Assembly (NCBI GenBank): GCA_015486075.1
Contig: WFSG01000040.1
Location: 4,647-68,646, forward strand
DNA from: Deltaproteobacteria bacterium
GTDB taxonomy: Bacteria; Desulfobacterota; Desulfomonilia; UBA1062
Length of the DNA: 64,000 bases
Direction: 5' to 3'
This document shows, piece after piece, positions 1,303 to 25,900 of the stretch. The position numbers and the translations under genes are program-made. The notes under the pieces are model-generated. The model was given only the letters and a program-made list of their open reading frames with translations, searched no databases and had not been told where the DNA came from. Positions within the stretch are counted from its first letter, which is position 1. Every line of letters begins with the position of its first letter.

Positions 1303-1453
1303 TAAAGTGACCTCCTTCCAAGAAGTTACAATACAGATGACACTTATATATCGCATTCTCTGATAAATCCAGAAAAAACCACTGCAGCCTTGACCCTTGC
1401 CATGCCTATAGAGTAATAATAAGCTTACCACAAAATTGAAAGGAGGTTTATCC

Positions 1454-3097
1454 ATGTCAAAGAGAGTCTATCAACCAGGGGAGGCCTACGACTACCAGCT
1501 TACAATAGGTCAACTATTGGAAACACCAAAGTTCTATGCACCTAACCAGGAAATCGTCTACAGGGATAAGCTTAGGTACACATACAAAGACCTCTTCGTG
1601 AGAATCAACCAGCTTGCTAATGTACTGACAGACCTAGGTATAAAACAAGGGGATACGGTATGCGTTTTCGATTTCGACTCTCACCGATATCTTGAGAGTT
1701 TCTTTGCCATACCCATGATAGGTGCTGTCATGCACACCATGAACTGGAGGCTTTCCCCTGAACAGATAATATACACAATGAACCACGCAGAGGATGATCT
1801 TGTAATCATACACAAGGAATTCCTACCCATACTCGAACAAATAAAGGATAAACTCACCACGCTTAAGAAGATAGTTGTAATAGCCGACGATGGCAAGATG
1901 CCAGAGACCAAGTTAAACATTGAAGGGGAATATGAAGATCTTCTGGGCAAGGCCTCCCCAGACTTTGATTTCCCTGACCTCGACGAGAATACAAAGGCAA
2001 GCACTTTTTACACAACCGGGACAACAGGCCTCCCAAAGGGGGTATATTTTTCCCACAGGCAGCTCGTTTTACACACCCTGGGCCTCATCTCAATAGGTGG
2101 ATGCTATGACTCCCCAACTGGCCTTTCTGTAAGAGACGTCTACATGCCACTTACACCGATGTTCCACGTGCATGCCTGGGGTGTACCTTACGCAGCTACC
2201 ATGCTAGGCATAAAGCAGGTGTACCCAGGCAAATACGAACCTGCCATGCTGCTCAAGCTGTTGCTGGAAGAAAAGGTGACATTCTCCCATTGCGTTCCCA
2301 CTATACTCCAGATGCTTGTAGGCAGCCCTGTTGCAAAGCAGGTTGATCTTTCCCACTGGAAAGTAATAATTGGCGGCGCAAGACTCCCCAAGGGCCTTGC
2401 AAAGGCTGCAACTGAACTTGGGATAACTGTGCAGGCTGCATACGGTATGTCAGAAACCTGTCCACTGGTGAGCATATCTAATTTCAAGCCACACATGTTC
2501 GAATGGGACAAAGAAAAACAGCTCGACATACTGGTAAAAACAGGCATACCTGCACCTATGGTAAAGGTTGAGATTGTGGACCCAAGTGGCAATCCACTAC
2601 CCCACGACGGAAAGGTAACAGGAGAGCTGGTAATAAGAGCACCATGGCTAACGCCAGGATATTTCAAGGATCCAGAGAAATCCAAGGATCTCTGGAGGAA
2701 TGGTTGGTTGCACACAGGCGACGTTGCATACATAGACGAGGAGGGCTATATCCAGATCACGGACAGGATAAAGGACGTGATCAAGAGCGGTGGAGAATGG
2801 GTATCATCCCTTGACCTGGAGAACCTTATGAGTATGCACGAAGCCGTACTCGAGGCGGCTGCAATCGGCATTCCCGACGAGAAATGGGGGGAAAGACCCA
2901 TGATGCTGGTCACACTTAAGCCTGGATTCGAGGACAAGGTAAAGGAAGAGGACTTCAAGGAATACATGAAGAAATGTGCTGAAGATGGCAAGATACCCAA
3001 GTACGGAGTACCTGACAAGTACGTTATTGTAGACCAGATCCCCAAGACAAGTGTAGGCAAGATAGACAAAAAAGAACTCAGAAAGATGTATCACTAG
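1454..3097 (+). CDS. AMP-dependent acyl-CoA synthetase/ligase (fatty-acid--CoA ligase family)
   Basis: Adenylate-forming motifs are present: TTGTTGLPKGV (A3 P-loop-like), YGMSET, and GWLHTGDVAYIDEEGYIQITDRIKDVIKSGGEWVSS (A8), with a C-terminal K. AAAGGAGG lies upstream of the ATG at 1454. Confidence 0.85.
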   Translation: MSKRVYQPGEAYDYQLTIGQLLETPKFYAPNQEIVYRDKLRYTYKDLFVRINQLANVLTDLGIKQGDTVCVFDFDSHRYLESFFAIPMIGAVMHTMNWRLSPEQIIYTMNHAEDDLVIIHKEFLPILEQIKDKLTTLKKIVVIADDGKMPETKLNIEGEYEDLLGKASPDFDFPDLDENTKASTFYTTGTTGLPKGVYFSHRQLVLHTLGLISIGGCYDSPTGLSVRDVYMPLTPMFHVHAWGVPYAATMLGIKQVYPGKYEPAMLLKLLLEEKVTFSHCVPTILQMLVGSPVAKQVDLSHWKVIIGGARLPKGLAKAATELGITVQAAYGMSETCPLVSISNFKPHMFEWDKEKQLDILVKTGIPAPMVKVEIVDPSGNPLPHDGKVTGELVIRAPWLTPGYFKDPEKSKDLWRNGWLHTGDVAYIDEEGYIQITDRIKDVIKSGGEWVSSLDLENLMSMHEAVLEAAAIGIPDEKWGERPMMLVTLKPGFEDKVKEEDFKEYMKKCAEDGKIPKYGVPDKYVIVDQIPKTSVGKIDKKELRKMYH

Positions 3098-3182: not shown

Positions 3183-4190
3183 TCATGCTACTCTGATCAC
3201 AGCGTTCTGAGTCTCAAGCTCACCCTTCTTCGCTGCAATAAGCACATCACACAGGTCCTCGAGGGGATATACCTTTATAGAGGGCTTCAGGTTGAGCCTA
3301 TCTGCAATCTCAAGGAAGGCAGTTGCATCCTTCCTGTTCACGTTGTATAGTGTCTTTATATCCTTCCCCCACAGGTTTTTACTGTAATCATTGATAACTA
3401 TTTCAGATGAGCTAACCGGTGCAAGGACTAGAGTGCCACCCCTTTCAATAGATGCCAGGGCCAGCTCAACCAGGTTACCTGCCGGGGGAAAGATTATGGC
3501 GGAATCAAGACTATTTGGCATGGTTTCCTTTGTGGCGTCTGCCACCCATGAGGCCCCTGAAAGCCTCGCAGCCTGGATATTCTTCTCAGACCTTGTACTT
3601 ACGTACACTTCAATACCCAGGTATTTAGCCACCTCGAGCACGTAATAGGCGGTCGGCCCAAATCCAAAGATGCCGAGCCTGTCACCCTTTTTAGCACCTG
3701 TCAACACCAGTGAGCAGTATCCTGCTATACCAGGGCACATGAGTGGAGCAATGATCTCCGGTTCCAGGTGCATGTCTCTTAGGGAAAGAGCAAATTGCTC
3801 TTTTATAACCATATACTCGGCATAACCACCATCCGCGTCCCAGCCCGTTGCCTTAAACTCAGGGCAGTAGTTCTCTCTACCTGATGTACAGTACTTACAC
3901 CTGCCGCAAGTACTGTTTAACCAGCTCACACCCACCATGTCGCCCTTCTTGTGATTCATCACGCCTTCACCCAGCTCGTCTACTATGCCCACAACCTCAT
4001 GACCCAGGATTACAGGTGACCTCTTCAGGTCGAGGTCACCTTCTGCAATGTGCAGATCTGTCCTGCAGACCCCGCAGAACAGGTTTTTTATCCTGATTTC
4101 ACCCCTTGATGCATGTGGCTCAGGAACCTCGGCGAGCCTTAGGGGCCTGTTTTCTATCTTGTCCTGCGACTCAAGTAACCATGCTTTCAT
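3183..4190 (-). CDS. zinc-dependent alcohol dehydrogenase (MDR family)
   Basis: Zn-ligand region GHEVVGIV plus CGVCRTDLH; structural Zn cysteines C..CKYC; GxGxxG Rossmann motif; 335 aa. Confidence 0.85.
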   Translation of the reverse strand: MKAWLLESQDKIENRPLRLAEVPEPHASRGEIRIKNLFCGVCRTDLHIAEGDLDLKRSPVILGHEVVGIVDELGEGVMNHKKGDMVGVSWLNSTCGRCKYCTSGRENYCPEFKATGWDADGGYAEYMVIKEQFALSLRDMHLEPEIIAPLMCPGIAGYCSLVLTGAKKGDRLGIFGFGPTAYYVLEVAKYLGIEVYVSTRSEKNIQAARLSGASWVADATKETMPNSLDSAIIFPPAGNLVELALASIERGGTLVLAPVSSSEIVINDYSKNLWGKDIKTLYNVNRKDATAFLEIADRLNLKPSIKVYPLEDLCDVLIAAKKGELETQNAVIRVA

Positions 4191-4194
4191 AGTT

Positions 4195-4700
4195 CAACTC
4201 CTGTATAGGAACATGGCATAAGGCGTAGGGCACAAGGTATAAGGTGTAGGGTATAAGGTTTATGATTCAGGTTCCAGGTGCCAGGTACCAGGCAAATAAC
4301 CTGAAGGCTGACAGCAGAAAGCTGAAAGTTAATCTAAAACTTTGTGCCTTTGTGCCTCTGTGCCTTTGTCCCTATCTTTTAATCTTTGTCCCTTTTCTAT
4401 GCTTTAGCCTAATGCTTTTTGCCTTCCGCCTTAAACCTTATACCCTATACCTTCTATTATTTTTTACCTGACACCCGGTACCTGATACCTGGCACCCTGT
4501 CTTTCCCTACGCCTTCCGCCTTCCGCCTTCCGCCTTAAACCTTGTACCCTACACCTTGTACCTTAAACCTTTTATTATTATATCTTTTCTTTTACTTGGC
4601 ACCTGATACCTGGCACCCGAGACCTTGTCTTCTTTACCTTAAACCCTATACCTTGTACCTTGTACCCTGTACCCCATACCTTGTACCATCTCTTTATACC
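4195..4700. repeat. intergenic heptamer-repeat palindromic element, copy A
   Basis: A purine-rich heptamer array (GGCATAA/GGTATAA/GGTGTAG...) at about 4215-4260, a conserved core at about 4270-4420 (GGTGCCAGGTACCAGGCAAATAACCTGAAGGCTGA...CTTTGTGCC...), and pyrimidine-rich heptamers (CCTTATA/CCCTATA/CCTTCCG/CCTTGTA) out to 4700. An internal inverted repeat pairs GGTGCCAGGTACCAGG at about 4278 with CCTGATACCTGGCACC at about 4480 and 4600. A second copy lies at 7665-8040. Confidence 0.8.
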
Positions 4701-6280
4701 ATCTCTACCCCATACTTTTTATCATCAACTTGCCCACGTCTTAAAACCTTCATGGCCTCTGGAAGGAAATCCATTATGTCCCTGGCAGTCATGCCGTCTT
4801 CACCTTTCTTGCTTGCAGCAAGGTCGCCTGAGAGGCCGTGCATGAATACACCCATCCTTGCTGCGTCCTCAAGTTTCAGTCCAAGTCCAAACATGGCTGC
4901 AATTGTGCCTGTGAGCACGTCACCTGAACCTGCCGTTGCCATGCCTGGATTCCCGGTCATGTTTATGAACATGCTTCCGTCCGGGTAGCCTACAAGGGAA
5001 TGTGCACCCTTTAGCACTATTATGCTATCAAACCTTGAACACGCATCTTTAAGCACCTGTATCCTGTTACCTGTAACCTCACGTATGCCCAGGCCTACCA
5101 GCCTTGACATCTCGCCTGGATGAGGGGTGAGTATGGTCTTTGCCTTTCTCTGCTTCAGGATCTCTGGCTTACTGGATACGGCTGTTATCCCGTCCCCGTC
5201 AACAAGTATTGGTTTTTCAATCTTTAGGACCAGGTCCCTTACAAGTTGCTGTGTCTCCTCATTTAGAGAAATACCAGGACCTATAACCACCATGTCAACC
5301 TTCTCCGAAAGTTCTAAGAGGAAGCTCATGTTTTCCATGGATATGCTACCAGAAGCTGTCTCCTTCAAGGGGACGAAAACAATTTCGCTACCCCTAGTAG
5401 CAACGGAAGATACCATGGAGGCAGGTAGGGCAAGTCTCGAATATCCTCCCCCTGCTCTTAGAAATGACATGGCAGCAAAATACGGCGCACCAAAATAGGT
5501 TGATGCACCTGCTATAAAAAGCACGTCCCCGAAGTCACCCTTGTGTCCGTCGGTAGCCCTTGAAACAAGGCCTACGGGTTCATTTGTCTCCACCTTAAGG
5601 GAATCAGAGTCGTAGAGCGAGGGCGGGAAGGATATGTGAGACACGTAGAGTCTACCGCATAGTTCGTACCCAGGAAAGAGCATGTTACCTATCTTGGGAA
5701 GTCCAAAGGTAACGGTATGATCTGCCCTTACAGCAGTACCCATGACGCTACCTGTATTGCCGTTTACCCCGGAAGGTATGTCTACGCTAAAGACCTTTTT
5801 TCTGCTCTCGTTTATGAGATCTATGGCATCTCTATATATGCCTTCAACATCTCTTGACAGGCCAGTACCAAATATCGCATCAACGATGGCATCCGAGTGC
5901 ATGGTCTCCTTTCTTGCGTCTTCCATGGTAGACTTAGTGCCAACCCTTACAATGTCGATCGCTAGCCTGGATACGATCTCGAAGTTCCTTTTTGCTGCAC
6001 CCTGGTACTTGCCTGGATCTCCAAGCATGAACACCTTGACCCTGCCGCCAGCCGAGTGTATCTTCCTGGCAACAACCAGGCCATCCCCGCCGTTGTTACC
6101 TATCCCAGAAAAGACAACAAACCTCTTTTCCTTTATACCGAGTTCTCTTAGTATAACAAAGTAGACTGCCTGGCCCGCGTTTTCCATGAGTATCTCGTCA
6201 GGTATGCCTAGGTTTTCAATTGCATGCCTGTCCATGGCCCTCATCTGTTCGACCGTGCTTATTTTCATGTCACCCTCCAA
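4694..6280 (-). CDS. nnr: bifunctional NAD(P)H-hydrate epimerase / ADP-dependent dehydratase (Nnr; YjeF-N + YjeF-C)
   Basis: The N-terminal YjeF_N domain carries GIGNNGGDGLVVAR. The C-terminal carbohydrate-kinase-like domain carries GPGISLNEE and a GSGDVLTG motif; 528 aa. Confidence 0.85.
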   Translation of the reverse strand: MEGDMKISTVEQMRAMDRHAIENLGIPDEILMENAGQAVYFVILRELGIKEKRFVVFSGIGNNGGDGLVVARKIHSAGGRVKVFMLGDPGKYQGAAKRNFEIVSRLAIDIVRVGTKSTMEDARKETMHSDAIVDAIFGTGLSRDVEGIYRDAIDLINESRKKVFSVDIPSGVNGNTGSVMGTAVRADHTVTFGLPKIGNMLFPGYELCGRLYVSHISFPPSLYDSDSLKVETNEPVGLVSRATDGHKGDFGDVLFIAGASTYFGAPYFAAMSFLRAGGGYSRLALPASMVSSVATRGSEIVFVPLKETASGSISMENMSFLLELSEKVDMVVIGPGISLNEETQQLVRDLVLKIEKPILVDGDGITAVSSKPEILKQRKAKTILTPHPGEMSRLVGLGIREVTGNRIQVLKDACSRFDSIIVLKGAHSLVGYPDGSMFINMTGNPGMATAGSGDVLTGTIAAMFGLGLKLEDAARMGVFMHGLSGDLAASKKGEDGMTARDIMDFLPEAMKVLRRGQVDDKKYGVEMV

Positions 6281-6319
6281 GATAAGTACTTCATGAAACC
6301 GAATGCTAGATTAAATACA

Positions 6320-6351
6320 CGTTGCATTCAAGAACTTATACGTATGCAACG
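6320..6351 (-). terminator. candidate hairpin downstream of ycaO
   Basis: CGTTGCAT at 6320-6327 pairs with ATGCAACG at 6344-6351 (8-bp stem, 16-nt loop), 66 nt past the ycaO stop. On the minus-strand RNA it is followed by GUGUAUUUAAUCU, which is only moderately U-rich. Confidence 0.25.
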
Positions 6352-6416
6352 ATGGTGTTGTATTTTCGTATCTTACTATTGTCGTGGCAAAGATAAATCT
6401 TAAAAGCCTTAACCAC

Positions 6417-7655
6417 CTAAGGTGTTGTATCAAATGTAACCACAGGCCTATAAAAAAGGTAGCCGTTTTTCATGCCGGACATGATGACGCGCACCACGGG
6501 TATACCCAGGTCCGGGTGCGTCAGGTCAAAGGCGAACACATCGTGACTTAAAGATAGCCTGTCCAGTATGCTTGTAAGATCACACGGATATGGATCCCCC
6601 GCATCTTTTATGGCCACAGGCCCCTTGCACCTGTTTATCCAGAAGTCTTCAGGCACGTATGCACTGTACCTCTCGGGTGGCACCCTGGTCTTTATGTACC
6701 TTACAATGGGCAAATACTGTCTCCTCGTCCTCCACTCGTAGAAGAAAGTGAATGCCCTTTGCTGGACGAGTTCCAGTATTGCCTGGTTAAGGGCTACTCT
6801 CAGGTCTACATGGGAAGCCGTACCCATGAAGAACGTGCGGCAGTACTCATCCCAGGCAGTTGCAGCAACCGAGTAGAATCCTTCGTCAAGGGAGGTATAA
6901 TAGAAGGCCCTCAGACCAAGCCCCTGGTCTTTGAACAGCTCCAGCCAGGTCTCGAAAAAATCGTCACCTTCTAAAGATAACTCAGTCGGTAGAGGTTCAA
7001 TTCCCCTAGAGATCGTGAACTGGAAATCCCTCTCTATCACCTCGCATATACCAGATATTATGGCATCATCCAGCGTGTTACCAGCTGCAAGCCCGTTGGA
7101 AAAGAAGAAACCCAGCCTCCTAGTCTCAAAGCCTTCAAAGGGATAGGCAGAGTCAGGTATATCCATGAGAACAAAGTCAACGGGTATGAATACCTGCCTT
7201 TCATGAAGGAGATCCGTGGCATAATACCACGTGAGTTCCTTGTCCTTTGAATATTCCACCCCTGGTGGCAGATACAATGTCTCTGGGTCCAGGGCATCTG
7301 GCGCAAATTCATTGTACGTCCCAACCTTGATGCGGCCCTCTAGAGGTGTGTAGGATGCAGTGTACCTCTCTATTGCCTCCATGATACAGGAAAGTCTTGA
7401 CTGGTCAGGGCTAAGCCCTTTACCCGAGTGCACGTAGGAGAAGTCTAGGTTACCCCACTCTTTAAGATTGCTGAAATCTACTGAGCCAAGCATGGAGGGC
7501 CTCAAGGTAAGGTGAACAGGGATACCAAGGCTGTCCACAAAGCTTATATCAATGGGATCCACTGCATTTATAACACCTAAGAGGGGCTCCACCCGGCCAA
7601 GGGTAGTTCCGACATCAGCTTTTCTCCAGTATAGTTTGGAATCGAGATTATTCAT
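6417..7655 (-). CDS. ycaO: YcaO-domain protein (standalone; no TfuA or E1-like partner in the window)
   Basis: YcaO ATP-binding signature region GKGLSPDQSRLSCIMEAIERY and a C-terminal ...GIPVVRVIMSG. The start was set at the ATG at 7655 (MNNLDSKLYWRK); the longer ORF-track N-terminus (MYLKPCTLYLVPWALCL) is an in-frame translation of the heptamer repeats. No clear RBS. Confidence 0.75.
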   Translation of the reverse strand: MNNLDSKLYWRKADVGTTLGRVEPLLGVINAVDPIDISFVDSLGIPVHLTLRPSMLGSVDFSNLKEWGNLDFSYVHSGKGLSPDQSRLSCIMEAIERYTASYTPLEGRIKVGTYNEFAPDALDPETLYLPPGVEYSKDKELTWYYATDLLHERQVFIPVDFVLMDIPDSAYPFEGFETRRLGFFFSNGLAAGNTLDDAIISGICEVIERDFQFTISRGIEPLPTELSLEGDDFFETWLELFKDQGLGLRAFYYTSLDEGFYSVAATAWDEYCRTFFMGTASHVDLRVALNQAILELVQQRAFTFFYEWRTRRQYLPIVRYIKTRVPPERYSAYVPEDFWINRCKGPVAIKDAGDPYPCDLTSILDRLSLSHDVFAFDLTHPDLGIPVVRVIMSGMKNGYLFYRPVVTFDTTP

Positions 7656-7664
7656 ATTATAAAA

Positions 7665-8040
7665 GCAGGACATAAGGCACAGGGCCCAGGGTACAAGGTA
7701 TAAGGTACAGGGTTTAAGGTACAAGGTGCAAGGTGTAAGGTACAGAAGACAAGGTTTCGGGTGCCGGGTATCAGGTACCAGGCAAATGACCTGGAGGCTG
7801 AGAGCTAATCTAACCCTTTGTCCCTTTGTGCCTTTTCTATCCTTGCGCCTTCTGCCCTACGCCTTCCGCCTTAAACCTTATACCTGGAACCCGGCACCTG
7901 AAACCCGATATCTGATACCTGTATCTTTTACCTTAAACCCTATACCTTAAACCCTATACCCTATACCTTAAACCCTATACCCTGTACCTTATACCTTGTA
8001 CCCTATGCCTTCCGCCTTATGCCTTATGCCTCTAACCTTA
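7665..8040. repeat. intergenic heptamer-repeat palindromic element, copy B
   Basis: A purine-rich heptamer array (GTACAAG/GTATAAG/GTTTAAG/GTGCAAG) at about 7690-7750. The core at about 7755-7870 is about 85% identical to the core of copy A (GGTGCCGGGTATCAGGTACCAGGCAAATGACCTGGAGGCTGAGAG...CTTTGTCCCTTTGTGCC...GCCTTCCGCCTTAAACCTTATACC). An inverted segment CCTGGAACCCGGCACC lies at about 7883. More than 15 CCYTRYA heptamers follow at about 7930-8040. Confidence 0.8.
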
Positions 8041-8892
8041 CACCCCAAAGTCCCTTACAGGCTTTAATTCTTCCATGGGATAGACCTGACCCTGCTTTGG
8101 AGGCATGGAGTTGTACACCCATTCAATATCAACACTACTAAGATTTATGCCCAAGTGCTTTTCTTCCTTTCTGTAAACACCCCTTACCAGCACGTCCTCC
8201 ATGTCAAGGCTCAGTGCAAAGATCGCGACCTCTGAACCATCGGGTATCCTGGATAGTTCCTCTGAATAGGCAAGTGGAGAGAAAACAAGTCTCGTGCTAT
8301 CTGCAGCCTGGCACTGGAGAACGGGTATTATGGCAGGGAAACCATCGTCATCCACGTACGATAGGAATTTCAATGCGTTCAGGCGGTTGAAAAGGCCTTC
8401 AGCCCAGGGTTTAAGGATGGTCCCGTTGCCATGGGAAGAGAAGGCGCCCTTTGCTAGTTTTGTCATGAGCAATGACAAGGCTATGCTTCCAAGGGGGAGT
8501 TTTTCTTTTCCATAAGTCTCTACCAGGTCCATGTAGTGTATGGTATGGATACCCATGTAGGCATTGTAGCGAAACATTGGTTTCTTATTAAACATCTCGT
8601 ATTCCTTGCCCTCTTTCTCCTCGTGGGTCCATCTGGCTTTGCCGCGCCACAGGTCACGCTTTAACGTCATTATCAAGAAACCTGTGTTAGGGTTAGTCTT
8701 CACGTTCTTCTTGCTCTGGCCCTCTGTAAACTGCCCCCATACGACTTCTGTTGGGGTCCTTGCCTGTAATGCCGTTATAAGCGTTACATGTGGTAGTCCC
8801 TGGGGATTTATTGTTGCCAACAGTCCTACCTTTACCTCAGGTTCGAATTCCTTCATGTCCTCTGGTTCAAACTCCCTTAGTATCTTTTTCAT
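8038..8892 (-). CDS. pyridoxamine 5'-phosphate oxidase-like FMN-binding split-barrel protein (two PNPOx-like halves)
   Basis: About 284 aa with two repeats of a PNPOx-like core (VGLLATINPQGLPHVTLI... / FLSYVDDDGFPAIIPV...). GGAGGATACC lies upstream of the ATG at 8892. Only the fold family is recognisable. Confidence 0.5.
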   Translation of the reverse strand: MKKILREFEPEDMKEFEPEVKVGLLATINPQGLPHVTLITALQARTPTEVVWGQFTEGQSKKNVKTNPNTGFLIMTLKRDLWRGKARWTHEEKEGKEYEMFNKKPMFRYNAYMGIHTIHYMDLVETYGKEKLPLGSIALSLLMTKLAKGAFSSHGNGTILKPWAEGLFNRLNALKFLSYVDDDGFPAIIPVLQCQAADSTRLVFSPLAYSEELSRIPDGSEVAIFALSLDMEDVLVRGVYRKEEKHLGINLSSVDIEWVYNSMPPKQGQVYPMEELKPVRDFGV

Positions 8893-8920
8893 GGTATCCT
8901 CCTTCGCTCTTTAGGGTATT

Positions 8921-9967
8921 TCAAGGAAGATTGCAGCTCTTCACCAGGCGTAGTTTTGGCCCGCTTTCTTCTTTTTCCTTCTCACCCTCCAGCTTTGTAA
9001 GACCTGTCCATACTATTATCGCAGAATTTACTCCGCTTTGCTTGGCCACATGGGCCATAGAATTCATGAAGTCCTTGGTGAGAAGTTCTTTTCCCTTGAA
9101 TTTCCAGTCAATACCAAGCCTTTCGTACTTGTCAACACACATGTTGTTGAAAGAGCATAGTTCCCAGCGGCTCACAACATCTTCCAGATTACTTTTTATA
9201 AACCTGCCTATGCCCTCTATGTTCTCAGGGGTTGCCGTGGCATCCGGTATTATGGGTGTTCTTATCCACATCTCTGAAGGTCTATCATGGTCTTTCATGT
9301 ATTCCCGTACGTATAGTACGTTCTCTAGGATCCTGGCATTGGAATGGCCCGTAAATTCCTGGTGTTTCTTTTCATCTATCTCCTTTATGTCAAATAGTAC
9401 GAGGTCAGTATAGGGCAGCACCATATCAAGTGCCTGCTTAGAGCACATGCCACATGTATCCAATGTTGTATGGAGACCCTTTTCCTTTAGAGCCCTGAAG
9501 AAAGCTGCCACGAACGGCGCCTGTAAAGTGGGCTCACCACCGGAGGCAGTGATCCCACCGCCAGAGTTATCAAAATATGCACGGTCCTTTATCACCTCGT
9601 CCAGCAGATCATCAAGCTTCCATTCCTTGCCTATCATCTCCATTGCCGTCGAAGGACATTCCTCAGTGCATATACCACATGCATCGCAGAGCTCCCTATC
9701 TATAACCATGCCGTCCTTTGTTAGCGTAAGTGCCTGCCTAGGACAGACATTAACGCATGTCATGCAACCTATGCACCTGTTACCCATCCACTGTATCTGG
9801 GGCATGGGAGAAATGGTCTCAGGGTTATGGCACCAGGTGCACTTCAAGGAGCAACCTTTAAAAAACACAGTTGTCCTTATACCTGGCCCGTCTTCAGTGG
9901 ACATGCGCTGTATGTTTGCGACCAAAGCACTCGGTATTCCAGCACTCTTATCCTTTGCCTTTACCAT
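8921..9967 (-). CDS. glycyl-radical enzyme activating enzyme (radical SAM, with two extra ferredoxin-type 4Fe-4S motifs)
   Basis: DGPGIRTTVFFKGCSLKCTWCHNPE (CxxxCxxC), plus CIGCMTCVNVCP and CDACGICTEECP inserts typical of non-PFL GRE activases. It lies immediately downstream of the GRE. Confidence 0.85.
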   Translation of the reverse strand: MVKAKDKSAGIPSALVANIQRMSTEDGPGIRTTVFFKGCSLKCTWCHNPETISPMPQIQWMGNRCIGCMTCVNVCPRQALTLTKDGMVIDRELCDACGICTEECPSTAMEMIGKEWKLDDLLDEVIKDRAYFDNSGGGITASGGEPTLQAPFVAAFFRALKEKGLHTTLDTCGMCSKQALDMVLPYTDLVLFDIKEIDEKKHQEFTGHSNARILENVLYVREYMKDHDRPSEMWIRTPIIPDATATPENIEGIGRFIKSNLEDVVSRWELCSFNNMCVDKYERLGIDWKFKGKELLTKDFMNSMAHVAKQSGVNSAIIVWTGLTKLEGEKEKEESGPKLRLVKSCNLP

Positions 9968-9980
9968 CTACAGATCTCCT

Positions 9981-12503
9981 TTAAAACTTGCTGTGACTTT
10001 CCCTGGCGATTATCTCGTCCTGGAGTTCGCGGCCTATACTTGTGAAGTATGCGTTGTAACCCGTTACCCTAACGAGGAGATTCCTGTAATTCTGGGGGTG
10101 TTCCTGTGCCTCCTTTAACATGCCTGCATCAACCATGTTTATCTGCAGAGATGAGCCACCGTTCTCAGCATATCCTCTCAGGAAGGCCTTAAATTTCTCC
10201 TTGTGATCCGGATCCCTTATAAGGGATGGGTTGAAGGTAATAGTGTGGCTTGCACCGTTGGGAAGGTTACTCAGGTATTCATTCCAGTCACCCTTGCCAT
10301 CCATGACCTTTCCACCAAGTGCCTTACCTACCGAGTTTGCATTGGCCGTGGGTCCATTTATGTCTGCCCCGTTGGATGGGCATATGGCATTGGATAAAAA
10401 CTCGCCTTTTCTCCTTCCATCTGGACTTGCAGGGAGTATAAAGCTATCTGCTATCCAGTAGTTCCAGCTTAGCATGCCTGGCCTGAACTGCCTGTTATTG
10501 CAGTGCGTCTTGTACTTCCATACCTCTCCTGACCACAGGTCCATTACCTTTGTTGCCATCTCGTCTGCCTCGTCGTCATCCCTTCCGTACTTAGGTGCCC
10601 TGTTCTTTGCCTTGGCCTGAAGTACCTCGTGGCCTTCCCAGTTATCTTTAAGTGCATTGATAAGTTCAGCCATGGTGCACTCTTTCTTGTCAAACACCAG
10701 GTACTTTATGGCAAGGAGAGAATCCACTGTGCTTGCAAATGTTACACCCTCAACCGTGGTAAAGAAGAGCTCCGGGCCTCCGCGAGTTACGTCAAGCGCC
10801 TTTTCAGCACAGCCCTTAACAAGGCAGGAAAGATAGGGAGTAGGCGAAAACTTTGTCCTTGCGGCTTCTGATGCCTCAAACAAATCCACGCATTTCTTTA
10901 CTATATATCTAGTTTGTTCCACGTAAGCATCCCAGAATTCTTCCCATGACCTGAACTTAGTTGCATCACCCGTGTCCGGACCATCCTGCCTTATACGATC
11001 CTTTTTACCAGTTATAGGATCAACAAAGGCCACCAGATCCTTGCCACCTGTCAGCGCAAGTTCAACTGCCTTCAGGAGGTTAAGATTGTTATCAACCGTG
11101 CCTGAGCGGTCATTACCTACCATGGTGTTCTCAAGGCAACCAACAGAGGCGTAGTCGTAAACATTATCCTCGTTTATGAGATCCTCTTTACCTGCCATCC
11201 TTGCCTCGCGTAGCATACCTGCCATAGAGCGCTCATCAAAATTCAATAGGAAAGGTGATCCCTGGCTGGTTGATATCATATCAACAACCTTGTCCAAGAG
11301 TTCGTCGGGACTGTTCCTGTGCAGACGTATATTCGGCTTTGGCTCAAGTATGGGAGAGAGCTCGTCTATTACTTCCAGCATTGCAAACGTAAGCTCATTG
11401 GTCATGTCCTTACCGCCTCTACCCAAGCCGGAAAGGCTTATAAGCTGGCCGTAGCCAGACGTGATTCCCTGGTTACCCCCGAGCTTCATCATGGCATCGT
11501 AGGCGGTATTGGCGTGTATCCAGAAACACTTGAGTATCTCCTTACCGAACTCCCTTGTCATGCCATGCTCTATCGAGTGCCTCCAGTAGGGGAGCAAATA
11601 CTGGTCTATTCTACCAAAGGACACGCCAGGTCCAGGATAGTTCTCGTCGCTCATTATAAGCATGTGGTTGAGCCACAGTGCCTGGACCGCCTCCCAGAAT
11701 GTCTCGGCAGGCTCCCATGGAACTTTATCCAGGTTCTTGGCCATTTGTATGAGTTCTTGCTTTCTTTGTTGATCTGTCTCCTTTTCACTGAGCTCCCTGC
11801 ACAGGTCAGCATACTTCTTTGCAAGGTCCCTTGGCATGGTAGCTGCTGTCATCATTGCCCTTAGCTGCTCACCCTTAGGGCCTCTTTTCTCCTCTTCTGT
11901 CAGATTCTCGTATCTCTCCTTAAGGTCAGCGTATATACCCTTGAATCCTATTTTCAGTGCATTTTCGTGGTCTGGTATAATATGGCCTGAAGTGGCACCT
12001 GCATTTCCGTATCCATGGTTATGAAACCACATCAGCTTTGCTCGGGCACCCTGTTTACCATCATATATCATCCTGTCTCGTTCCTTTGCCTCCTGCTCTG
12101 TCCAGCACCTTGATGCCAAGATGTTAAAGCGTGCACCTGCTATGAGATCACCTGGGAGTATCTCCTGCGGCACGTAGTTAACCATGACCTCTTTTATGAA
12201 CCAGGCCCTTCTCTCAGGAAGACTCCACTTCCAAAAATCTTCGTGGAGCTTTACCGGCCTTGCTGCCTGGTATGAAGACGACCTGAATGTCTGAAAAAAG
12301 GTATATGTCTCGGGAACCACGTACCAGCCAATCTCATCAAATAGTACATCCCAAGGTGTGCCTGTTGTCCACGTGGTGAATTCATTGTTCCACTCGCGCT
12401 CAACACCCTTGAAGTAATAATCCCTGAGCCACTTGATCCTCTCGGATAAAGGTCCTGGCTCCTTTAACTTATACATAGGTCTCTTGGCCGTGCTCGTATC
12501 CAT
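9981..12503 (-). CDS. glycyl radical enzyme, PFL2/glycerol-dehydratase-like family, substrate unknown
   Basis: 840 aa. C-terminal glycine-radical motif LLVRVTGYNAYFT; catalytic cysteine region YASVGCLENTM; N-terminal ...ERIKWLRDYY... typical of the DhaB1/CutC/HypD-class of GREs. Confidence 0.85.
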   Translation of the reverse strand: MDTSTAKRPMYKLKEPGPLSERIKWLRDYYFKGVEREWNNEFTTWTTGTPWDVLFDEIGWYVVPETYTFFQTFRSSSYQAARPVKLHEDFWKWSLPERRAWFIKEVMVNYVPQEILPGDLIAGARFNILASRCWTEQEAKERDRMIYDGKQGARAKLMWFHNHGYGNAGATSGHIIPDHENALKIGFKGIYADLKERYENLTEEEKRGPKGEQLRAMMTAATMPRDLAKKYADLCRELSEKETDQQRKQELIQMAKNLDKVPWEPAETFWEAVQALWLNHMLIMSDENYPGPGVSFGRIDQYLLPYWRHSIEHGMTREFGKEILKCFWIHANTAYDAMMKLGGNQGITSGYGQLISLSGLGRGGKDMTNELTFAMLEVIDELSPILEPKPNIRLHRNSPDELLDKVVDMISTSQGSPFLLNFDERSMAGMLREARMAGKEDLINEDNVYDYASVGCLENTMVGNDRSGTVDNNLNLLKAVELALTGGKDLVAFVDPITGKKDRIRQDGPDTGDATKFRSWEEFWDAYVEQTRYIVKKCVDLFEASEAARTKFSPTPYLSCLVKGCAEKALDVTRGGPELFFTTVEGVTFASTVDSLLAIKYLVFDKKECTMAELINALKDNWEGHEVLQAKAKNRAPKYGRDDDEADEMATKVMDLWSGEVWKYKTHCNNRQFRPGMLSWNYWIADSFILPASPDGRRKGEFLSNAICPSNGADINGPTANANSVGKALGGKVMDGKGDWNEYLSNLPNGASHTITFNPSLIRDPDHKEKFKAFLRGYAENGGSSLQINMVDAGMLKEAQEHPQNYRNLLVRVTGYNAYFTSIGRELQDEIIARESHSKF

Positions 12504-12538: not shown

Positions 12539-13300
12539 CTAAGGCAAGGCTCGGCCTTGTTCGTGTTGGCCAGCCTTCTGTATCGCCTTCTTTAGATACC
12601 TTCTACCATGCTCGAGAAGTTCCTCCATTATGCCAAGTGCCCCGGGCGTATCCTTACATGCTATGGCCAAGACAATGTCTCTGTGATACCCGAATACCCG
12701 GGGTATAACAGATGAATCCTGAAAGAAGCGCCCGGATAGATTCGTGTACACGGGCTTGAAGGACCTAATAAGAAAAGGATAAACTATATTTCCTGAGGCA
12801 AGTGCGATCAGGTGATGAAACTCAAAGTCTATCTCTGTAACTGAATCCACGTCTGTTTTATCAAGCTCCTTTTCTCTCTCTATGATATCATTTAACGAGA
12901 CCATATCTTTTTTTGTCCGGTTCTGGGTAGCAAGCCTCAGCGTCTCCATCTCTACCAGGTACCTCATGTCCAAGAGACTGTCTAAAAGACCGGGCTCGAG
13001 GTCTCCCCTGTAATAATTAACAAGGGAATTGAGTAGCACGAGGGATCCCTCCATCCTGTAATCATTTACCACTGTACCTACCCTGGGCTTCATGGTGACA
13101 AGTCCCTTTGATGCAAGCTCCAACAGACCCTCGTGCACCACTGGCCTGCTCACCCCGAGTTGCAATGCAAGCTCCCTCTCTGATGGCAGCTTTTGACCTA
13201 TCGAGAGCTTCCCAGATAGTATGAGCTCTTCAAAACGTGTTACAAAGACGTCCTTTAGACTCGACCTCTCAATCGGCCTTAACATGTCTTTCATATGCAT
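12539..13300 (-). CDS. GntR-family transcriptional regulator (FadR-like, wHTH + FCD domain)
   Basis: N-terminal GntR HTH (LPSERELALQLGVSRPVVHEGLLELASKGLV) and a C-terminal FCD-like helical domain. It is the first gene of the minus-strand gntR-GRE-AE block. Confidence 0.8.
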   Translation of the reverse strand: MHMKDMLRPIERSSLKDVFVTRFEELILSGKLSIGQKLPSERELALQLGVSRPVVHEGLLELASKGLVTMKPRVGTVVNDYRMEGSLVLLNSLVNYYRGDLEPGLLDSLLDMRYLVEMETLRLATQNRTKKDMVSLNDIIEREKELDKTDVDSVTEIDFEFHHLIALASGNIVYPFLIRSFKPVYTNLSGRFFQDSSVIPRVFGYHRDIVLAIACKDTPGALGIMEELLEHGRRYLKKAIQKAGQHEQGRALP

Positions 13301-13556: not shown

Positions 13557-16325
13557 ATGAAGCGTAAAAAGAGCATGGCAGGCACGTTCACCTGGATTAT
13601 GTTCATCATGACCCTGGTTCCGGTTGCTATATTCGGTATCGCCTCGATAAGTGTGGAGTATCTCATGGGAGAACGTGAATGTCATGCACTGAGAGAGAGG
13701 TACATAGACTATCAGGAATCTATTGTCAAAAAAGAAGTTCAAGAGGCGGTAAAATACATAGAGTGGCGCAGGGCAAATTCAAGGATACCTCAAGAAGATC
13801 TCAAGAAAGAGATACTAAGATGGCTTTCCATGAAAAGGTACCGATCCCTTGGTAAAGAGGATGGCATCTTCTTTGTAAGAAATTTTGACGGTATACAGCT
13901 GATGAGTGTAAGCAAGCCAGAGATTGTTGGAAAGGACACGTCCAAGCTCACCGATCCTCACGGTATAAACACGCATAGACTTTTCATGGAGGTGATAAAA
14001 AATCCAGACGGTGGTTTTGCCGACTATTCCTGGTACGACCCGTACGAGAAAAGGATTACCCCTAAAAGGACCTTTGTTATGGCTGTTCCCGAGTGGAGAT
14101 GGTACATAGGCTCGGGATTTTGGTTTAACGACATCAATTCTGTTATCAACAAAGAAAAAAGCCGTATAGCACACACCCTAAGTATACAGGCCCTTGCAGC
14201 AATGGGGATAATACTTTTACTTGTGCCCTTTATATATGCGTTGTCCCGCTACATGGCAAAAAGCATTGACAAGAGCATGGCGAGCTTTACAGGCTTCTTC
14301 GATAGGGCCGCGACAGAGCTCACCCGTATTGACGAAAAAGCCATGGATTTCAGAGAGTTTGAGAGGCTGGCAACAAGTGCAAACCGTATGATAAAAGAAC
14401 TAAAGGTTGCCAGGCAGGGGATGGAAGACCTGCAAAGGATAGTAGACCTTAGTCCAATGGTGGCATTTCTGTGCCGTGCAGAGCAGGGATGGCCTGTAGA
14501 GCTTGTATCTAGGAACATCTCCAGCTTTGGGTACAGTCCTGAAGATTTTTATACCGGTAAACTCAACTACGCATCAATCATTCACCCTGACGATCTGGAC
14601 CGTGTCAATGACGAGGTCTCAAGGTTCAGCTCAGAAAAAGGCCGAAAGAGTTTCAGCCACGAATACAGGATACTTACTTCGTCAGGTGAGACACGCTGGG
14701 TGGATGATAGGACGCGTATAAGGAGAGATGCCACTGGCAAGGTTACCCATTACCAGGGCATAATACTGGACGTAACAGAGAGCAGGACAGCACAGCAAAG
14801 GCTGGTGGAAAGCGAGGAAAGGTACCGTACAGTGGTAGAAAACACGCACGATGGCTTGCTCATTGCAGATAATGAGTACCATATAACCTTTGCTAACAAA
14901 CAGCTCCTGAAAATCCTCGGCCGTACCGAAGAAGAGGTAATCGGCCATGACTTCAGGGACTTCTTGGACGAAGAAAGTGTTGGTATAGTTGCAGACCACT
15001 ACATGAGAAGGCAGATGGGTGAGAAAGTAGAGCCAAGGTACGAGTTCAATGTTGAAAGGAAAGATGGAGAGAGAAGGCGGGTCGAGATAAGCTCATCCAT
15101 TGTCCGGGATACGCAGGGTCATATTACGACCGTTGCCCAGCTAATAGACATAACTGACAAAAAACGGCTGGAGGAACAGCTGTTACTGGCACAGAAGATG
15201 GAGGCCGTTGGTACACTTGCAGGCGGTATTGCCCACGATTTTAACAACCTGCTTATGGGTATACTGGGCAATACCTCGCTCATGCTCATGGACATGGATC
15301 CCGACGATCCCCGTTACCAGAGGCTTAAGAACATCGAGCAGGCTGTGCACAGCGGGGCAGAGCTCACCAAGCAGCTCCTTGGCTATGCGAGAGGCGGAAA
15401 GTACGAGGTGAAATCAGCCGATCCTAACGATCTTGTAAAGGGCGCCCTTAACATGTTCGGCAGGACAAAGAAAGAGATAAGCATACATACCATGCTCCAA
15501 GAAGACGTGTGGAATATCGAGGTTGACAAATCGCAGATTGAACAGGTGTTGTTAAATATCTGTGTGAATGCCTGGCAGGCCATGCCAGAGGGCGGCGACC
15601 TCTACATACAGACACAAAACACGGTACTCGACGAGAACTACACCCGGGCCTACAACACGCAAGCAGGTAGATACGTGAAGATATCCTTTACCGATACAGG
15701 CCATGGCATGGATGACGAGACAAGAAAAAGGATCTTCGAACCCTTCTTCACCACAAAGCCAAAGGGGACAGGTACTGGCCTTGGCTTGGCCTCTGCTTAT
15801 GGGATTGTAAAGAATCATGGGGGCATTATAAACGTGTACAGCGAAAAAGGTAAGGGCTCTACATTCAACATATACCTACCTGCCTCGCAAAAGAAGGCAG
15901 TCAAGGAAAGGCTTATTGGAGATGCTATCACGACCATGGGATCAGCTACAATACTCATGGTAGACGACGAGGAGATGATACTAAAGGTTGGTTCTGATCT
16001 ACTCGCCAAGCTCGGCTACAAGGTACTTACAGCAACCAGCGGAGAGCAGGCAATAAACATATACAAGGGCAGGATGAACGAAATAGACCTGGTTATACTG
16101 GACATGATCATGCCCGGAATGAGCGGGCGGGATACATACAAGCGCCTCAAGAAGTTAAATGAAAATGTCAAGGTGCTACTTTCCAGCGGATATAGCGTAA
16201 ACGGCGAGGCAGAGGAATTATTGAGACTCGGCTGCAATGGTTTTATCCAGAAACCCTTCAGTGTAAGGGAGTTGCATGCAAAGACAAGCGAGCTAATAAA
16301 GGGAAAGAAAACCACCAAACCTTAG
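13557..16325 (+). CDS. hybrid sensor histidine kinase / response regulator with periplasmic sensor and PAS domains
   Basis: N-terminal TM segment, a Cache-like extracytoplasmic region and a second TM. Two PAS segments (...HPDDLDRV..., ...[19 protein letters not shown]...). HisKA H-box [13 protein letters not shown]; HATPase N/G boxes ([24 protein letters not shown]). A C-terminal REC domain ([10 protein letters not shown]...[14 protein letters not shown]). The alternative ATG at 13539 lacks an RBS. Confidence 0.85.
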
Positions 16326-22958: not shown

Positions 22959-25900
22959 ATGAGAACAAACAAGACACCATTTGTCAGCATAGGTATGCCT
23001 GTATACAATGGCGAGCGTTACATAAAGCAGGCACTGGATTCTTTACTATCCCAGGACTACGACAACTTTGAGTTAATAATCTCTGATAATGCTTCTACCG
23101 ATAGTTCGCCAGATATCTGTCTTGAGTATAAAAATAAGGATGGCCGTGTCAAGTTTTACCGCAATGATAAGAATATTGGACCTAATGATAACTTCAATCG
23201 TGTCTTTGAACTATCATCAGGCCAATATTTCATGTGGGCAGCGTGTGATGACCTATGGACACCTAATTACATATCATCACTTGTAAAAGCTTTAGCCTCT
23301 GATAAAAATGCAGTTCTAGCATTTTCACAACTGAACAATATTGACGAAAACGGTAATATATGCCGTGAATACCCGAACCTCCATCTTCTATCATCAAAGG
23401 CCCCCCTGCCTGACAGGCTAAATAATATAATATGGTTCAGGGAAGAGGATGGGAAGGCAAACCTAGTATACGGCCTCATCAGGAGTGATATCTTAAAGAA
23501 GATTGACATATTCAAATCTTACGGTTTTGGAAACTGGGGTGTTGATTATCTTTTAGTATTTAGACTGGCGTTGTTCGGCAAATTTTTATTTGTAAATGAT
23601 TCTTGTTTTTACAAGAGACTGACAGAAGAAAACATCTCGAGATGGGCAAACACTTCTCCTGAAGAGTACTGCCACCTTATTCAGGGTTACTTCCAGGGCT
23701 ACAGAACCATTATCAAAGAAAGCAATCTACGAGACATTGAGAAAGATACACTACTGATGTCCATCTCTGCAAGGGAAGGCCATTGGTACTCCCGCATCCT
23801 AGGTTCGAATACTATTGAAGATACAGCTTCCAAAATAAGATCCATGGTTGAGAAAACTCACGATTATACAGCTCCATCCATCATAAATAATAAACAACAT
23901 CAGCACACACCCAACATGGACAGGCAGGATACCAACACAAATAAGCCTTCCCAGATAATAGATAAGACAATACTATTTCTGAGTGTTGGTAGTATCAATT
24001 ACGATTGTAATATCAACTTTTATGAACCCCTAAAGGCCATCTTCAAGAAAGCAATAAACTACAACTACATGGAAAGGCTAGAAATCTTAGGTAAAAAAGC
24101 GATGAATGAAGAGATTATCCACATAGTAAAAAGCAAAAAGCCCGACTATGTATTCATTCACACCTATCAGGATCAAATAGAACTATCCACTTTGGACAAG
24201 ATAAACATGCTTGGTGTAAAAACAATTGCATGGTTTTCAGATGATCACTGGCGCTTTGATGATTATTCAAGATTCCTGGCACCGCATGTCTTTTGCTCAA
24301 TAACAACCGACAAATACGCGGTGGATAAATATAAGAGTCTGGGATTTAACGTCATAAAATCACAATGGGCCTCAAATCAACACCATTATAGAAAGACCAA
24401 TACTCCTCTATTGTATGACGTTACCTTTGTGGGACAAAACTATGGCAAAAGAAAAGATAACTTATTTTATCTAAAAACCAAGAATGTCCCACTTAGCGTA
24501 TTTGGAAGAGGTTTTGGGACATTCCTTGAGTTCGATGAGATCATCAAGATATTCAATGCCAGCAAGATCAATCTTAACTTTAGCGGCAGCTCCCGGGACG
24601 ATAACATCAAGCAAATAAAGGGAAGGATTTTTGAAGTCCCTATGTGTAAAGGCTTCCTGTTAACCGAGTACGCCGAAGGCATAGAGGAGTATTTCGAAAT
24701 AGGCAAGGAAATAGAGTGTTTTGATGATATAAAGGATGCCCTTGATAAGATCCAATACTACCTAAAACACGAAGACAGGCGTCTAGAGATAGCCGAGAAA
24801 GGCCATATACGTGCACTAAGGGATCACACATGGGAAAAGAGATTAAGGGATTTGTTCCTCGAAGTGGAAAGACTTGAGAAAAGCTCAAGCGTGCCTCACG
24901 GGCATGACTGGATAACTACCCAGAAAGACATGCAAAAAGAAATCAGCGATCACAAGAAACATAATATCCCTTACAGGAAAAAGTATGAGATGGGTTTTCA
25001 TGGCGACAGTTACCTGCTTACGCTCATAGACCATGTGCTTACAAGGTGTGATGCATTTATAGAAACAGGGACATACATGGGTGATTCCCTTGAATATGTA
25101 GCTCGAAACTTCAGCCATCTCCATATATTCTCATGCGAACCAAAGACAGAACACATAACAGTTGCCAGAAACAAACTCCGTCCTTACCTACATAATATTA
25201 CACTCGACCAGGTTAAGTCACCAGATTTCTTATATAAAATAGTGGAAGATCACCCCGATCTTGTCAACAAGGATGTGGCCTTCTGGCTTGATGCTCACTC
25301 ATTTGGATATAAATGGCCATTGAAAGATGAGATAAGGTTTATAACAGGGACATTCAAGAAGGCATACATCTTTATAGATGACTTCAAGATACCAGGCAGG
25401 CCTGAATTTCAGTATGACATCTACGATGGTCAAGAGTGTTCCTGGGAATTTATCCATGATGAGATGTGTACGGATAAGGAATATTTAATATATCTACCCA
25501 AATACAAAGAGAAAACATCCAGGCATCATCCCCTTGTAGGGTGGGCCCTTATAGAATTTGGCCACGCAACTATGCAAATACCAGACTCACTAAAAGATCA
25601 CCTCATCCAAACATCTGCCTATAGACTGCCAGCCGAGGGCAAGTTTGATGAAGAACATCATGATCATGATGTATACAATGAATCAGTGTCATACGGGGAG
25701 AACTCCAACAGTTATATGGCAGATCACTGGTCAGATAAATCCGTCCACCCTGGTAGCGAAAAGAATAAGAACGCTAAACACCCGATTCGTCCATCAGGGG
25801 GTAAAAAGTATGTGTCAAGAGAGCATATAAAGCATGTTCTTCTAACTACCTCGGCTGCACCTAACCAGTCTCCTTTCTCAACGACAGAGAAAAGACCTCC

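Follow-up and report, generated by a model that had tools for sequence, protein, structure and literature searches.

A gene encoding a stand-alone enzyme of the YcaO superfamily (ycaO) was examined in a stretch of 64,000 nucleotides from a deltaproteobacterial genome (contig WFSG01000040.1; the whole stretch is referred to as the window), and its product was assigned to a new, uncharacterized subfamily of a known enzyme kind. The protein has the YcaO fold with intact ATP/Mg2+ motifs, is under purifying selection, has no partner genes encoded nearby, and shows no conserved link to the glycyl radical enzyme (GRE) genes that it adjoins. It is proposed to be a functional stand-alone, ATP-dependent backbone thioamidase that would use free sulfide and act on a substrate whose gene is not linked to ycaO. 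The odds of this statement as a whole were judged to be about even, and those of the thioamide chemistry by itself were judged to be lower. The coding sequence and the elements predicted within it were as follows.

6417 to 7655, minus strand: ycaO coding sequence, 412 amino acids, single-domain stand-alone YcaO (PF02624, 196.5 bits)
7365 to 7391, minus strand: first ExxER motif, residues 89 to 97 (S-C-I-M-E-A-I-E-R), predicted from the family alignment to bind ATP/Mg2+
7026 to 7043, minus strand: second motif, residues 205 to 210 (E-V-I-E-R-D), predicted from the family alignment to bind ATP/Mg2+
7107 to 7163, minus strand: clade-specific loop, residues 165 to 183 (DIPDSAYPFEGFETRRLGF), near-invariant in the family alignment

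The minus-strand open reading frame (ORF) runs from a TTG at position 7724 to position 6417, and the ATG at position 7655 is the first to agree with the starts annotated in homologues. Another in-frame ATG, at position 7673, would give a protein of 418 amino acids, which is the length of a near-identical cluster member (P0268). Membership in the YcaO superfamily was indicated by scores over the full domain: the PF02624 match (cutoff, 25.7 bits) covered protein residues 77 to 395 and profile positions 1 to 324 of 325, and the generic YcaO kinase-domain model TIGR00702 (117.4 bits; cutoff, 75.65) was the sole NCBIfam model whose cutoff was passed. The protein aligned over its full length with 24 family members. 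In this 25-sequence alignment, residues S89, E93, and E96 of the first motif were invariant and R97 was present in at least 90% of sequences, and E205, E208, R209, and D210 of the second motif were invariant; the counterparts in MJ1094 of Methanocaldococcus jannaschii are MEAIER and EIIERD, respectively. The glutamates of the ExxER and ExxERD motifs bind ATP/Mg2+ in known YcaO structures. The most conserved stretch of the family was the loop at residues 165 to 183 (D168, S169, A170, F173, G175, F176, R180, G182, and F183 invariant), which holds a 9-residue insertion relative to MJ1094 and was used as a search pattern for related loci. The AlphaFold2 model of the protein had a pLDDT of 85 and a pTM of 0.88, with low pLDDT over the loop. 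On the basis of its conservation, the loop is a plausible candidate for a substrate-recognition or lid element.

The ratio of nonsynonymous to synonymous substitution rates (dN/dS) for ycaO against its 77%-identical orthologue in the related locus L001 was approximately 0.12, versus 0.04 to 0.11 for neighboring genes; because dS was close to saturation in this comparison, these values are approximate. The gene is intact and under purifying selection. The protein ends in RPVVTFDTTP and carries no C-terminal PxPxP motif, which is typical of cyclodehydratases.

The protein belongs to a very small, deeply divergent, and isolated clade. A word-indexed search of 5.8 billion proteins returned 29 close relatives at 47% to 100% identity, below which identity fell sharply to approximately 30%. 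In an exhaustive HMMER profile search that covered 1.84 billion cluster representatives, the family was reduced to three fragments and a single full-length cluster (50% identity), which scored 680 bits, and the next match scored 142 bits. The tier that began at that score was made up of archaeal proteins annotated as YcaO-related McrA-glycine thioamidation proteins (Methanonatronarchaeum, Methanofastidiosa, and other archaea). All named clade members were from metagenome-assembled genomes (MAGs) assigned to Syntrophaceae, Syntrophobacterales, or “Syntrophus aciditrophicus” or to Deltaproteobacteria from Guaymas, all of them bacteria of anoxic environments. Identity across the wider clade was 47% to 62%, with many invariant positions. 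The clade could represent a Syntrophia-specific lineage with the methanogen McrA thioamidases as its nearest relatives, and these bacteria could have acquired the gene from methanogen partners in the distant past.

Comparison with subfamily-level hidden Markov models (HMMs) gave scores below cutoff for every equivalog-type model. TIGR03266 (McrA-glycine thioamidation) was the best of these, collinear over residues 15 to 396 (146.5 bits; cutoff, 365), followed by TIGR03604 (SagD-type cyclodehydratase; 128.6 bits; cutoff, 219.25). NF040716 (Escherichia coli YcaO) reached 28.4 bits over residues 183 to 303 alone (cutoff, 700), and a place among E. coli-type housekeeping YcaO proteins, an outcome that the preliminary description of this DNA had allowed for, was not borne out. 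Among PDB sequences, MJ1094 ranked at the top, followed by MusD, TruD, the Methanopyrus kandleri YcaO, LynD, and, last of the six, the E. coli YcaO. The top fold match was also the M. jannaschii YcaO (6peu; TM-score of 0.72 by query length and 0.77 by target length), after which came the M. kandleri YcaO and then LynD, MusD, TruD, the E. coli YcaO, and McbD. A neighbor-joining tree placed the clade on a long branch beside one divergent sequence. Taken at face value, homology describes what would be a minimal archaeal-style YcaO and does not fix its chemistry.

Genes for the partners with which YcaO enzymes often act were sought in the window and in 18 loci with family members that were recovered and probed with the window proteins. 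Among the scanned real-looking window ORFs of at least 110 amino acids, none encoded a TfuA, ThiF/E1-like, or nitroreductase/SagB-type protein. No match to PF07812 (TfuA) was found among the scanned window ORFs or the called genes of related loci, and tblastn with the TfuA domain of a YcaO-TfuA fusion (P0233) was negative in the window and in related loci. Across the 18 related loci (approximately 250 kb in total), ycaO was not accompanied by a TfuA, ThiF-like, or SagB-like gene or by any conserved small ORF; the sole nitroreductase-fold gene seen lies 9 kb from ycaO on the opposite strand in L001. Protease, transporter, dehydrogenase, and RRE/E1-like genes likewise did not recur near ycaO across these loci. 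The lack of a TfuA, E1-like, or dehydrogenase partner noted in the preliminary description therefore holds and extends to the family as a whole, but its claim that none is encoded within 50 kb on either side went too far, as the window includes only 6.4 kb on the low-coordinate side of ycaO. With a single domain, seven gene contexts, and no recurrent partner, the protein is a stand-alone YcaO.

Several candidates for a substrate or a partner were considered and rejected. For 13 loci, ORFs of 18 to 130 amino acids lying no more than 1.5 kb from ycaO were compared all against all by BLAST, which returned only shadow ORFs of adjacent genes and no conserved precursor peptide, and the gaps around ycaO in the window contained no credible small ORF. 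A gene for a 245-amino-acid protein lies 3' of ycaO in six loci (L003, L004, L005, L008, L011, and L014); this protein is a lipoprotein (signal peptide, lipobox Cys, and Gly-rich segment), and its gene, which the window lacks, belongs with rpe to a housekeeping block. A 95-amino-acid, Cys-rich zinc-ribbon ORF (L017, positions 9717 to 10004), which comes after thiE in a Syntrophus-like MAG and overlaps ycaO at its annotated start, was seen near no other family member. POR clusters upstream of ycaO in L003, L005, and L017 were different paralogues (40% to 45% identity) and were absent from L008, L011, and L012.

Methanogen loci provided a further comparison, in that the ycaO loci of Methanoculleus and Methanothermus had no adjacent tfuA. 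In Methanothermus fervidus (L016), the McrA-type ycaO is overlapped at its 3' end by a gene (positions 4190 to 5152) for a 320-amino-acid PP-loop ATPase-like protein rather than TfuA, with matches to the QueC, Asn_synthase, and argininosuccinate-synthase families. This protein could be an alternative sulfur-delivery partner in that organism.

Analogy with characterized enzymes suggests thioamide chemistry, with sulfide as the source of sulfur, and a substrate whose gene is unlinked. The gene would probably be transcribed alone or together with the downstream nnr, and the enzyme, which has no dedicated partner gene, would act on the product (a protein or a peptide) of a gene at another site in the genome. 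The reaction would follow the usual YcaO course, in which a nucleophile attacks a backbone carbonyl, the resulting oxyanion is O-phosphorylated with ATP, and phosphate is then eliminated. The nucleophile would most likely be free sulfide, giving a backbone thioamide, as for two TfuA-less archaeal enzymes, the M. kandleri YcaO and MJ1094. Neither M. kandleri nor M. jannaschii has tfuA, yet thioglycine is present in both (PMC5589413), and their YcaOs thioamidate in vitro with ATP and sulfide, according to a passage of PMC7581889 that cites Mahanta 2018. The E. coli YcaO thioamidates ribosomal protein uL16 without any TfuA, including in vitro, and organisms of high-sulfide habitats can do without TfuA/ThiS (PMC13063428).

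Several points weigh against this proposal. In an in-house McrA-type HMM, clade members scored 109 to 175 bits, compared with 450 to 690 bits for true members and approximately 200 to 350 bits for most other non-McrA YcaOs. Corrected distances were near equal, at 1.84 from the clade to McrA-type sequences and 1.98 to other YcaOs. Given this near equidistance and the long branch, homology cannot separate thioamide, azoline, amidine, and peptidase activities, and phylogenetic placement was dropped as a guide to chemistry. The hosts are strict anaerobes, and sulfidic settings are suggested by several MAG names (Guaymas, “SulCav”). The searches identified no substrate for the clade. The partner search covered 64 kb of the source genome, elsewhere in which a tfuA, thiS, or E1-like gene may be encoded.

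That last point bears on the explanation that the protein depends on TfuA/ThiS as conventional thioamidases do, with its partner genes located elsewhere in the genome. The Methanoculleus and Methanothermus loci illustrate that tfuA and ycaO are not always adjacent. This explanation was nonetheless considered decidedly unlikely, given the negative searches of the window and the 18 related loci and the observation that methanogen tfuA, where present, normally overlaps ycaO (PMC5589413). A stand-alone maturase of ribosomally synthesized and posttranslationally modified peptides (RiPPs), which might form an azoline or an amidine or act as a MusD-like ATP-dependent peptidase on a short precursor encoded at an unlinked site or missed on account of its size or divergence, was regarded as doubtful but less so. 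Stand-alone YcaOs of the bottromycin/streptamidine type are known (10.1101/2020.05.04.076059), MusD was the second-best PDB sequence match, the TIGR03604 score was only slightly below that of TIGR03266, and the rare, patchy occurrence of the clade resembles that of secondary-metabolite genes. Against it stand the lack of a conserved small ORF and of recurrent protease, transporter, dehydrogenase, or RRE/E1-like genes, the C terminus without PxPxP, and the commonest gene context of the family, which is a housekeeping one (kdtA, ycaO, the lipoprotein gene, and rpe). The identity of 47% to 62% and the ordinary dN/dS (from the L001 comparison only) also suit a conserved protein substrate, an argument taken from PMC13063428. 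Together, the identity, ordinary rates, housekeeping contexts, and lack of transporters, proteases, and precursors favor an unlinked conserved protein substrate over a RiPP cluster, in keeping with the proposed thioamidase.

The remaining explanation, that the YcaO posttranslationally modifies the adjacent GRE (thioamidation being one option) or produces a GRE cofactor, in analogy with YcaO action on methyl-coenzyme M reductase (MCR), was raised by the gene neighborhood of the window, which includes the following features.

12539 to 13300, minus strand: gntR, GntR/FCD regulator (domain matches)
9981 to 12503, minus strand: GRE, 840 amino acids (domain matches)
8921 to 9967, minus strand: radical-SAM activase (domain matches)
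8038 to 8892, minus strand: PNPOx-like protein, 284 amino acids (weak N-terminal Pfam match; no NCBIfam match)
8038 to 12503, minus strand: GRE-activase-PNPOx-like cassette as a whole, which adjoins ycaO with no functional link by comparative evidence
4694 to 6280, minus strand: nnr, bifunctional Nnr (domain matches)

The shared orientation described for this region was confirmed, with gntR, the GRE, activase, and PNPOx-like genes, ycaO, and nnr all on the minus strand. Gaps within the GRE cassette are 13 to 35 bp (13 and 28 bp within the GRE-activase-PNPOx-like segment), whereas the gap from the PNPOx-like gene to ycaO measures 383 bp in the window and 129 bp in L001. The order GRE-activase-PNPOx-like-YcaO-Nnr-alcohol dehydrogenase was found only in the window and in L001, L002, and L009, whose YcaOs are 78% to 79% identical and belong to one genus-level lineage. 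Elsewhere, the commonest ycaO context was the kdtA-lipoprotein-rpe arrangement, whole or partial, which occurred in two subclades (the six loci with the 245-amino-acid lipoprotein gene). The genes that flank ycaO encode an AsnB-like amidotransferase and a GH3 hydrolase in L006, a hybrid histidine kinase and a sigma-54 activator in L007, and a HAD hydrolase and a phosphopantetheinyl transferase in L018; in L017, the same locus as L013, ycaO comes after thiE and the zinc-ribbon gene. Two of the 18 family contigs were too short for the context to be judged. A GRE gene was absent within 8 to 10 kb of ycaO in at least 10 distinct loci of six other context types. The check for a GRE gene beside ycaO in relatives was positive in L001, L002, and L009 and negative in the other contexts.

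The link was also assessed from the GRE side in 80 metagenome loci (L019 to L098; 835 kb) with GRE orthologues that were 68% to 91% identical to that of the window. The activase gene was present in 67 of these loci, the PNPOx-like gene followed it in 62 to 64, and a GntR gene preceded the GRE gene in 30. No YcaO was encoded in any of the 80 loci, and a relaxed tblastn search (E value of up to 1) over all 835 kb was also negative; at least 1.5 kb of sequence was available downstream of the PNPOx-like gene in 46 loci, enough to show a YcaO gene, and at least 3 kb was available in 31. These included L021 and L022, which have an 80%-identical GRE and 6 kb of downstream sequence each and contained no YcaO gene. 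The GRE-activase-PNPOx-like cassette itself was kept in more than 60 of the 80 loci, and the PNPOx-like protein is the real conserved companion of the window GRE.

A role for the YcaO in maturing the neighboring GRE was therefore judged to be largely refuted and very improbable, and the functional link suggested in the preliminary description was abandoned. The adjacency and common orientation in the window, L001, L002, and L009 speak for such a role, as does the fact that the nearest characterized homologues thioamidate an enzyme of radical chemistry. These observations are outweighed by the confinement of the adjacency to one lineage (YcaO identity of at least 78%), by the loci in other contexts that have no GRE gene, by the GRE loci that have no YcaO gene, and by the wide gap that separates ycaO from the tightly spaced cassette. 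As a single event in one lineage, the adjacency carries no statistical weight. As a curiosity, ycaO of E. coli K-12 is directly upstream of focA-pflB-pflA on the same strand (L099; NC_000913.3, positions 950340 to 956632), which is another YcaO-GRE adjacency of independent origin, and the substrate of that enzyme is not PflB but uL16, which is thioamidated at Met82 (PMC13063428); GRE adjacency is thus no evidence of function. By the same finding, the earlier statement that limits YcaO thioamidation of proteins to MCR is outdated. The YcaO-GRE adjacency in the window is a lineage-specific accident of gene order.

Among known systems, the archaeal McrA thioamidases (MJ1094, 6pe3/6peu; M. kandleri, 6ci7/6cib) share the most with the window YcaO, including a single domain of approximately 400 amino acids, near-full-length collinearity, the best HMM, sequence, and fold matches, conserved ATP/Mg2+ motifs, the absence of an obligatory partner gene, and anaerobic hosts in presumably sulfidic habitats. 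They differ in that identity is only 23% to 30%, the TIGR03266 score is far below its cutoff, the loop at residues 165 to 183 is an insertion relative to MJ1094, and the clade is on a long branch without intermediates. Since bacterial hosts within Syntrophaceae/Syntrophobacterales are not expected to encode MCR, the substrate would have to differ from McrA. The E. coli-type YcaO resembles the window protein in being bacterial, in having no TfuA and no nearby precursor ORF, in the presence of a GRE operon alongside (a coincidental likeness), and in having a protein substrate encoded elsewhere, as proposed for the window YcaO. Unlike the E. coli-type protein (586 amino acids), the window YcaO has no C-terminal TPR-like domain of approximately 150 residues, and the E. 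coli YcaO was the weakest of the six PDB sequence matches and ranked above only McbD in the fold search. A conserved, strongly acidic isoelectric point of approximately 4.4 is a criterion for E. coli-type YcaOs (PMC13063428). The isoelectric point of the window protein (4.7) is near that value, but those of clade members are mostly 5.0 to 6.2, with one at 8.2, and acidity is therefore not conserved.

TfuA-associated YcaOs of thioamitide and other RiPP pathways have in common with the window clade the YcaO domain and the proposed thioamide chemistry, but the clade lacks an adjacent tfuA, a precursor gene, and a biosynthetic cluster. The cyclodehydratases of thiazole/oxazole-modified microcin (TOMM), cyanobactin, and microcin pathways (LynD, TruD, and McbD) share the YcaO fold (Foldseek TM-score to the LynD YcaO domain of 0.67 to 0.69 by query length) and ATP-dependent amide activation, which is predicted for the clade. 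In contrast to these systems, no fused or adjacent E1-like/Ocin-ThiF gene, SagB dehydrogenase gene, or precursor gene was found for the clade in the window and the 18 loci. The amidine-forming enzymes of the bottromycin and streptamidine pathways and the MusD peptidase also act without an E1-like or TfuA partner; they are encoded in clusters with precursor and tailoring genes, whereas the clade is found in unrelated, mostly housekeeping contexts.

Protein backbone thioamides are known from two substrates only, MCR and uL16, and further YcaO protein substrates probably await discovery, as stated in the 2026 uL16 study (PMC13063428). A third thioamidated protein could reasonably be sought through a compact, partner-less, and well-conserved clade that is confined to syntrophic bacteria. 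The fuller reading, in which the clade would be a third, bacterial case of protein backbone thioamidation by a YcaO, with a conserved protein of syntrophic metabolism as the target and the loop at residues 165 to 183 as the recognition element, is offered tentatively and was considered unlikely as a whole. The value of the analysis is mostly negative, in that the idea of a YcaO maturing the neighboring GRE was dropped and the PNPOx-like protein was revealed as the conserved companion of the GRE.

The remaining features of the ycaO neighborhood were an alcohol dehydrogenase gene and two repeat elements.

3183 to 4190, minus strand: Zn-dependent alcohol dehydrogenase (Zn-ADH), ATG at 4190
7672 to 8031, no strand assigned: composite heptamer-repeat element with TRF arrays, which fills the gap between the PNPOx-like gene and ycaO and abuts or overlaps the ycaO start
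4211 to 4690, no strand assigned: second copy of the repeat, with TRF arrays, between nnr and the Zn-ADH gene

These repeat elements share approximately 75% identity and have the same orientation, and an 18-mer from their core occurs exactly twice in the window, versus 0.07 occurrences expected by chance. Each element ends at a minus-strand start codon, that of the Zn-ADH gene (ATG at 4190) or that of ycaO (ATG at 7655). On the minus strand, the elements consist of heptamer arrays of the AAGGTAT/AGGGTAC/AAGGCGG type, a core (TTAGATTARCT...CAGGTYATTTGCCTGGTACCTG), and reverse-complement heptamers, an arrangement that could form a long imperfect hairpin. The heptamer-repeat elements described as bracketing ycaO are real, but they flank the pair of ycaO and nnr rather than ycaO alone. 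The corresponding gaps in L001, the nearest relative for which DNA was available, measure approximately 130 bp and contain neither element; the elements were therefore interpreted as recent insertions unrelated to ycaO function. Rfam searches found nothing in the elements; the only matches above the gathering threshold in the window were two tRNA-Ser genes. Promoter and terminator scans of positions 4100 to 8950 gave counts that were not above those for shuffled sequence and were uninformative on operon structure.

Other observations were made on the GRE and on more distant parts of the window. The window GRE scored below all NCBIfam equivalog cutoffs (HypD, HpsG/HpfG, CutC, and PFL). Its counterpart in L001 (positions 5419 to 7938) was 91% identical at the amino acid level with a dN/dS of 0.04, compared with 77% to 83% and 0.07 to 0.12 for neighboring genes. 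The acyl-CoA ligase gene of the window (positions 1436 to 3097; 553 amino acids) corresponds to two ORFs of 226 and 324 amino acids in L001 (positions 14188 to 15833) and L002, which suggests a frameshift or pseudogene in those loci. A giant ORF of 2,769 amino acids (window positions 22959 to 31268) encodes approximately six GT2 domains, a GT1-like domain, a B12-binding radical-SAM module, and C-terminal TPR repeats and is located within a cluster of dTDP-sugar, methyltransferase, and glycosyltransferase genes (positions 16609 to 38857).

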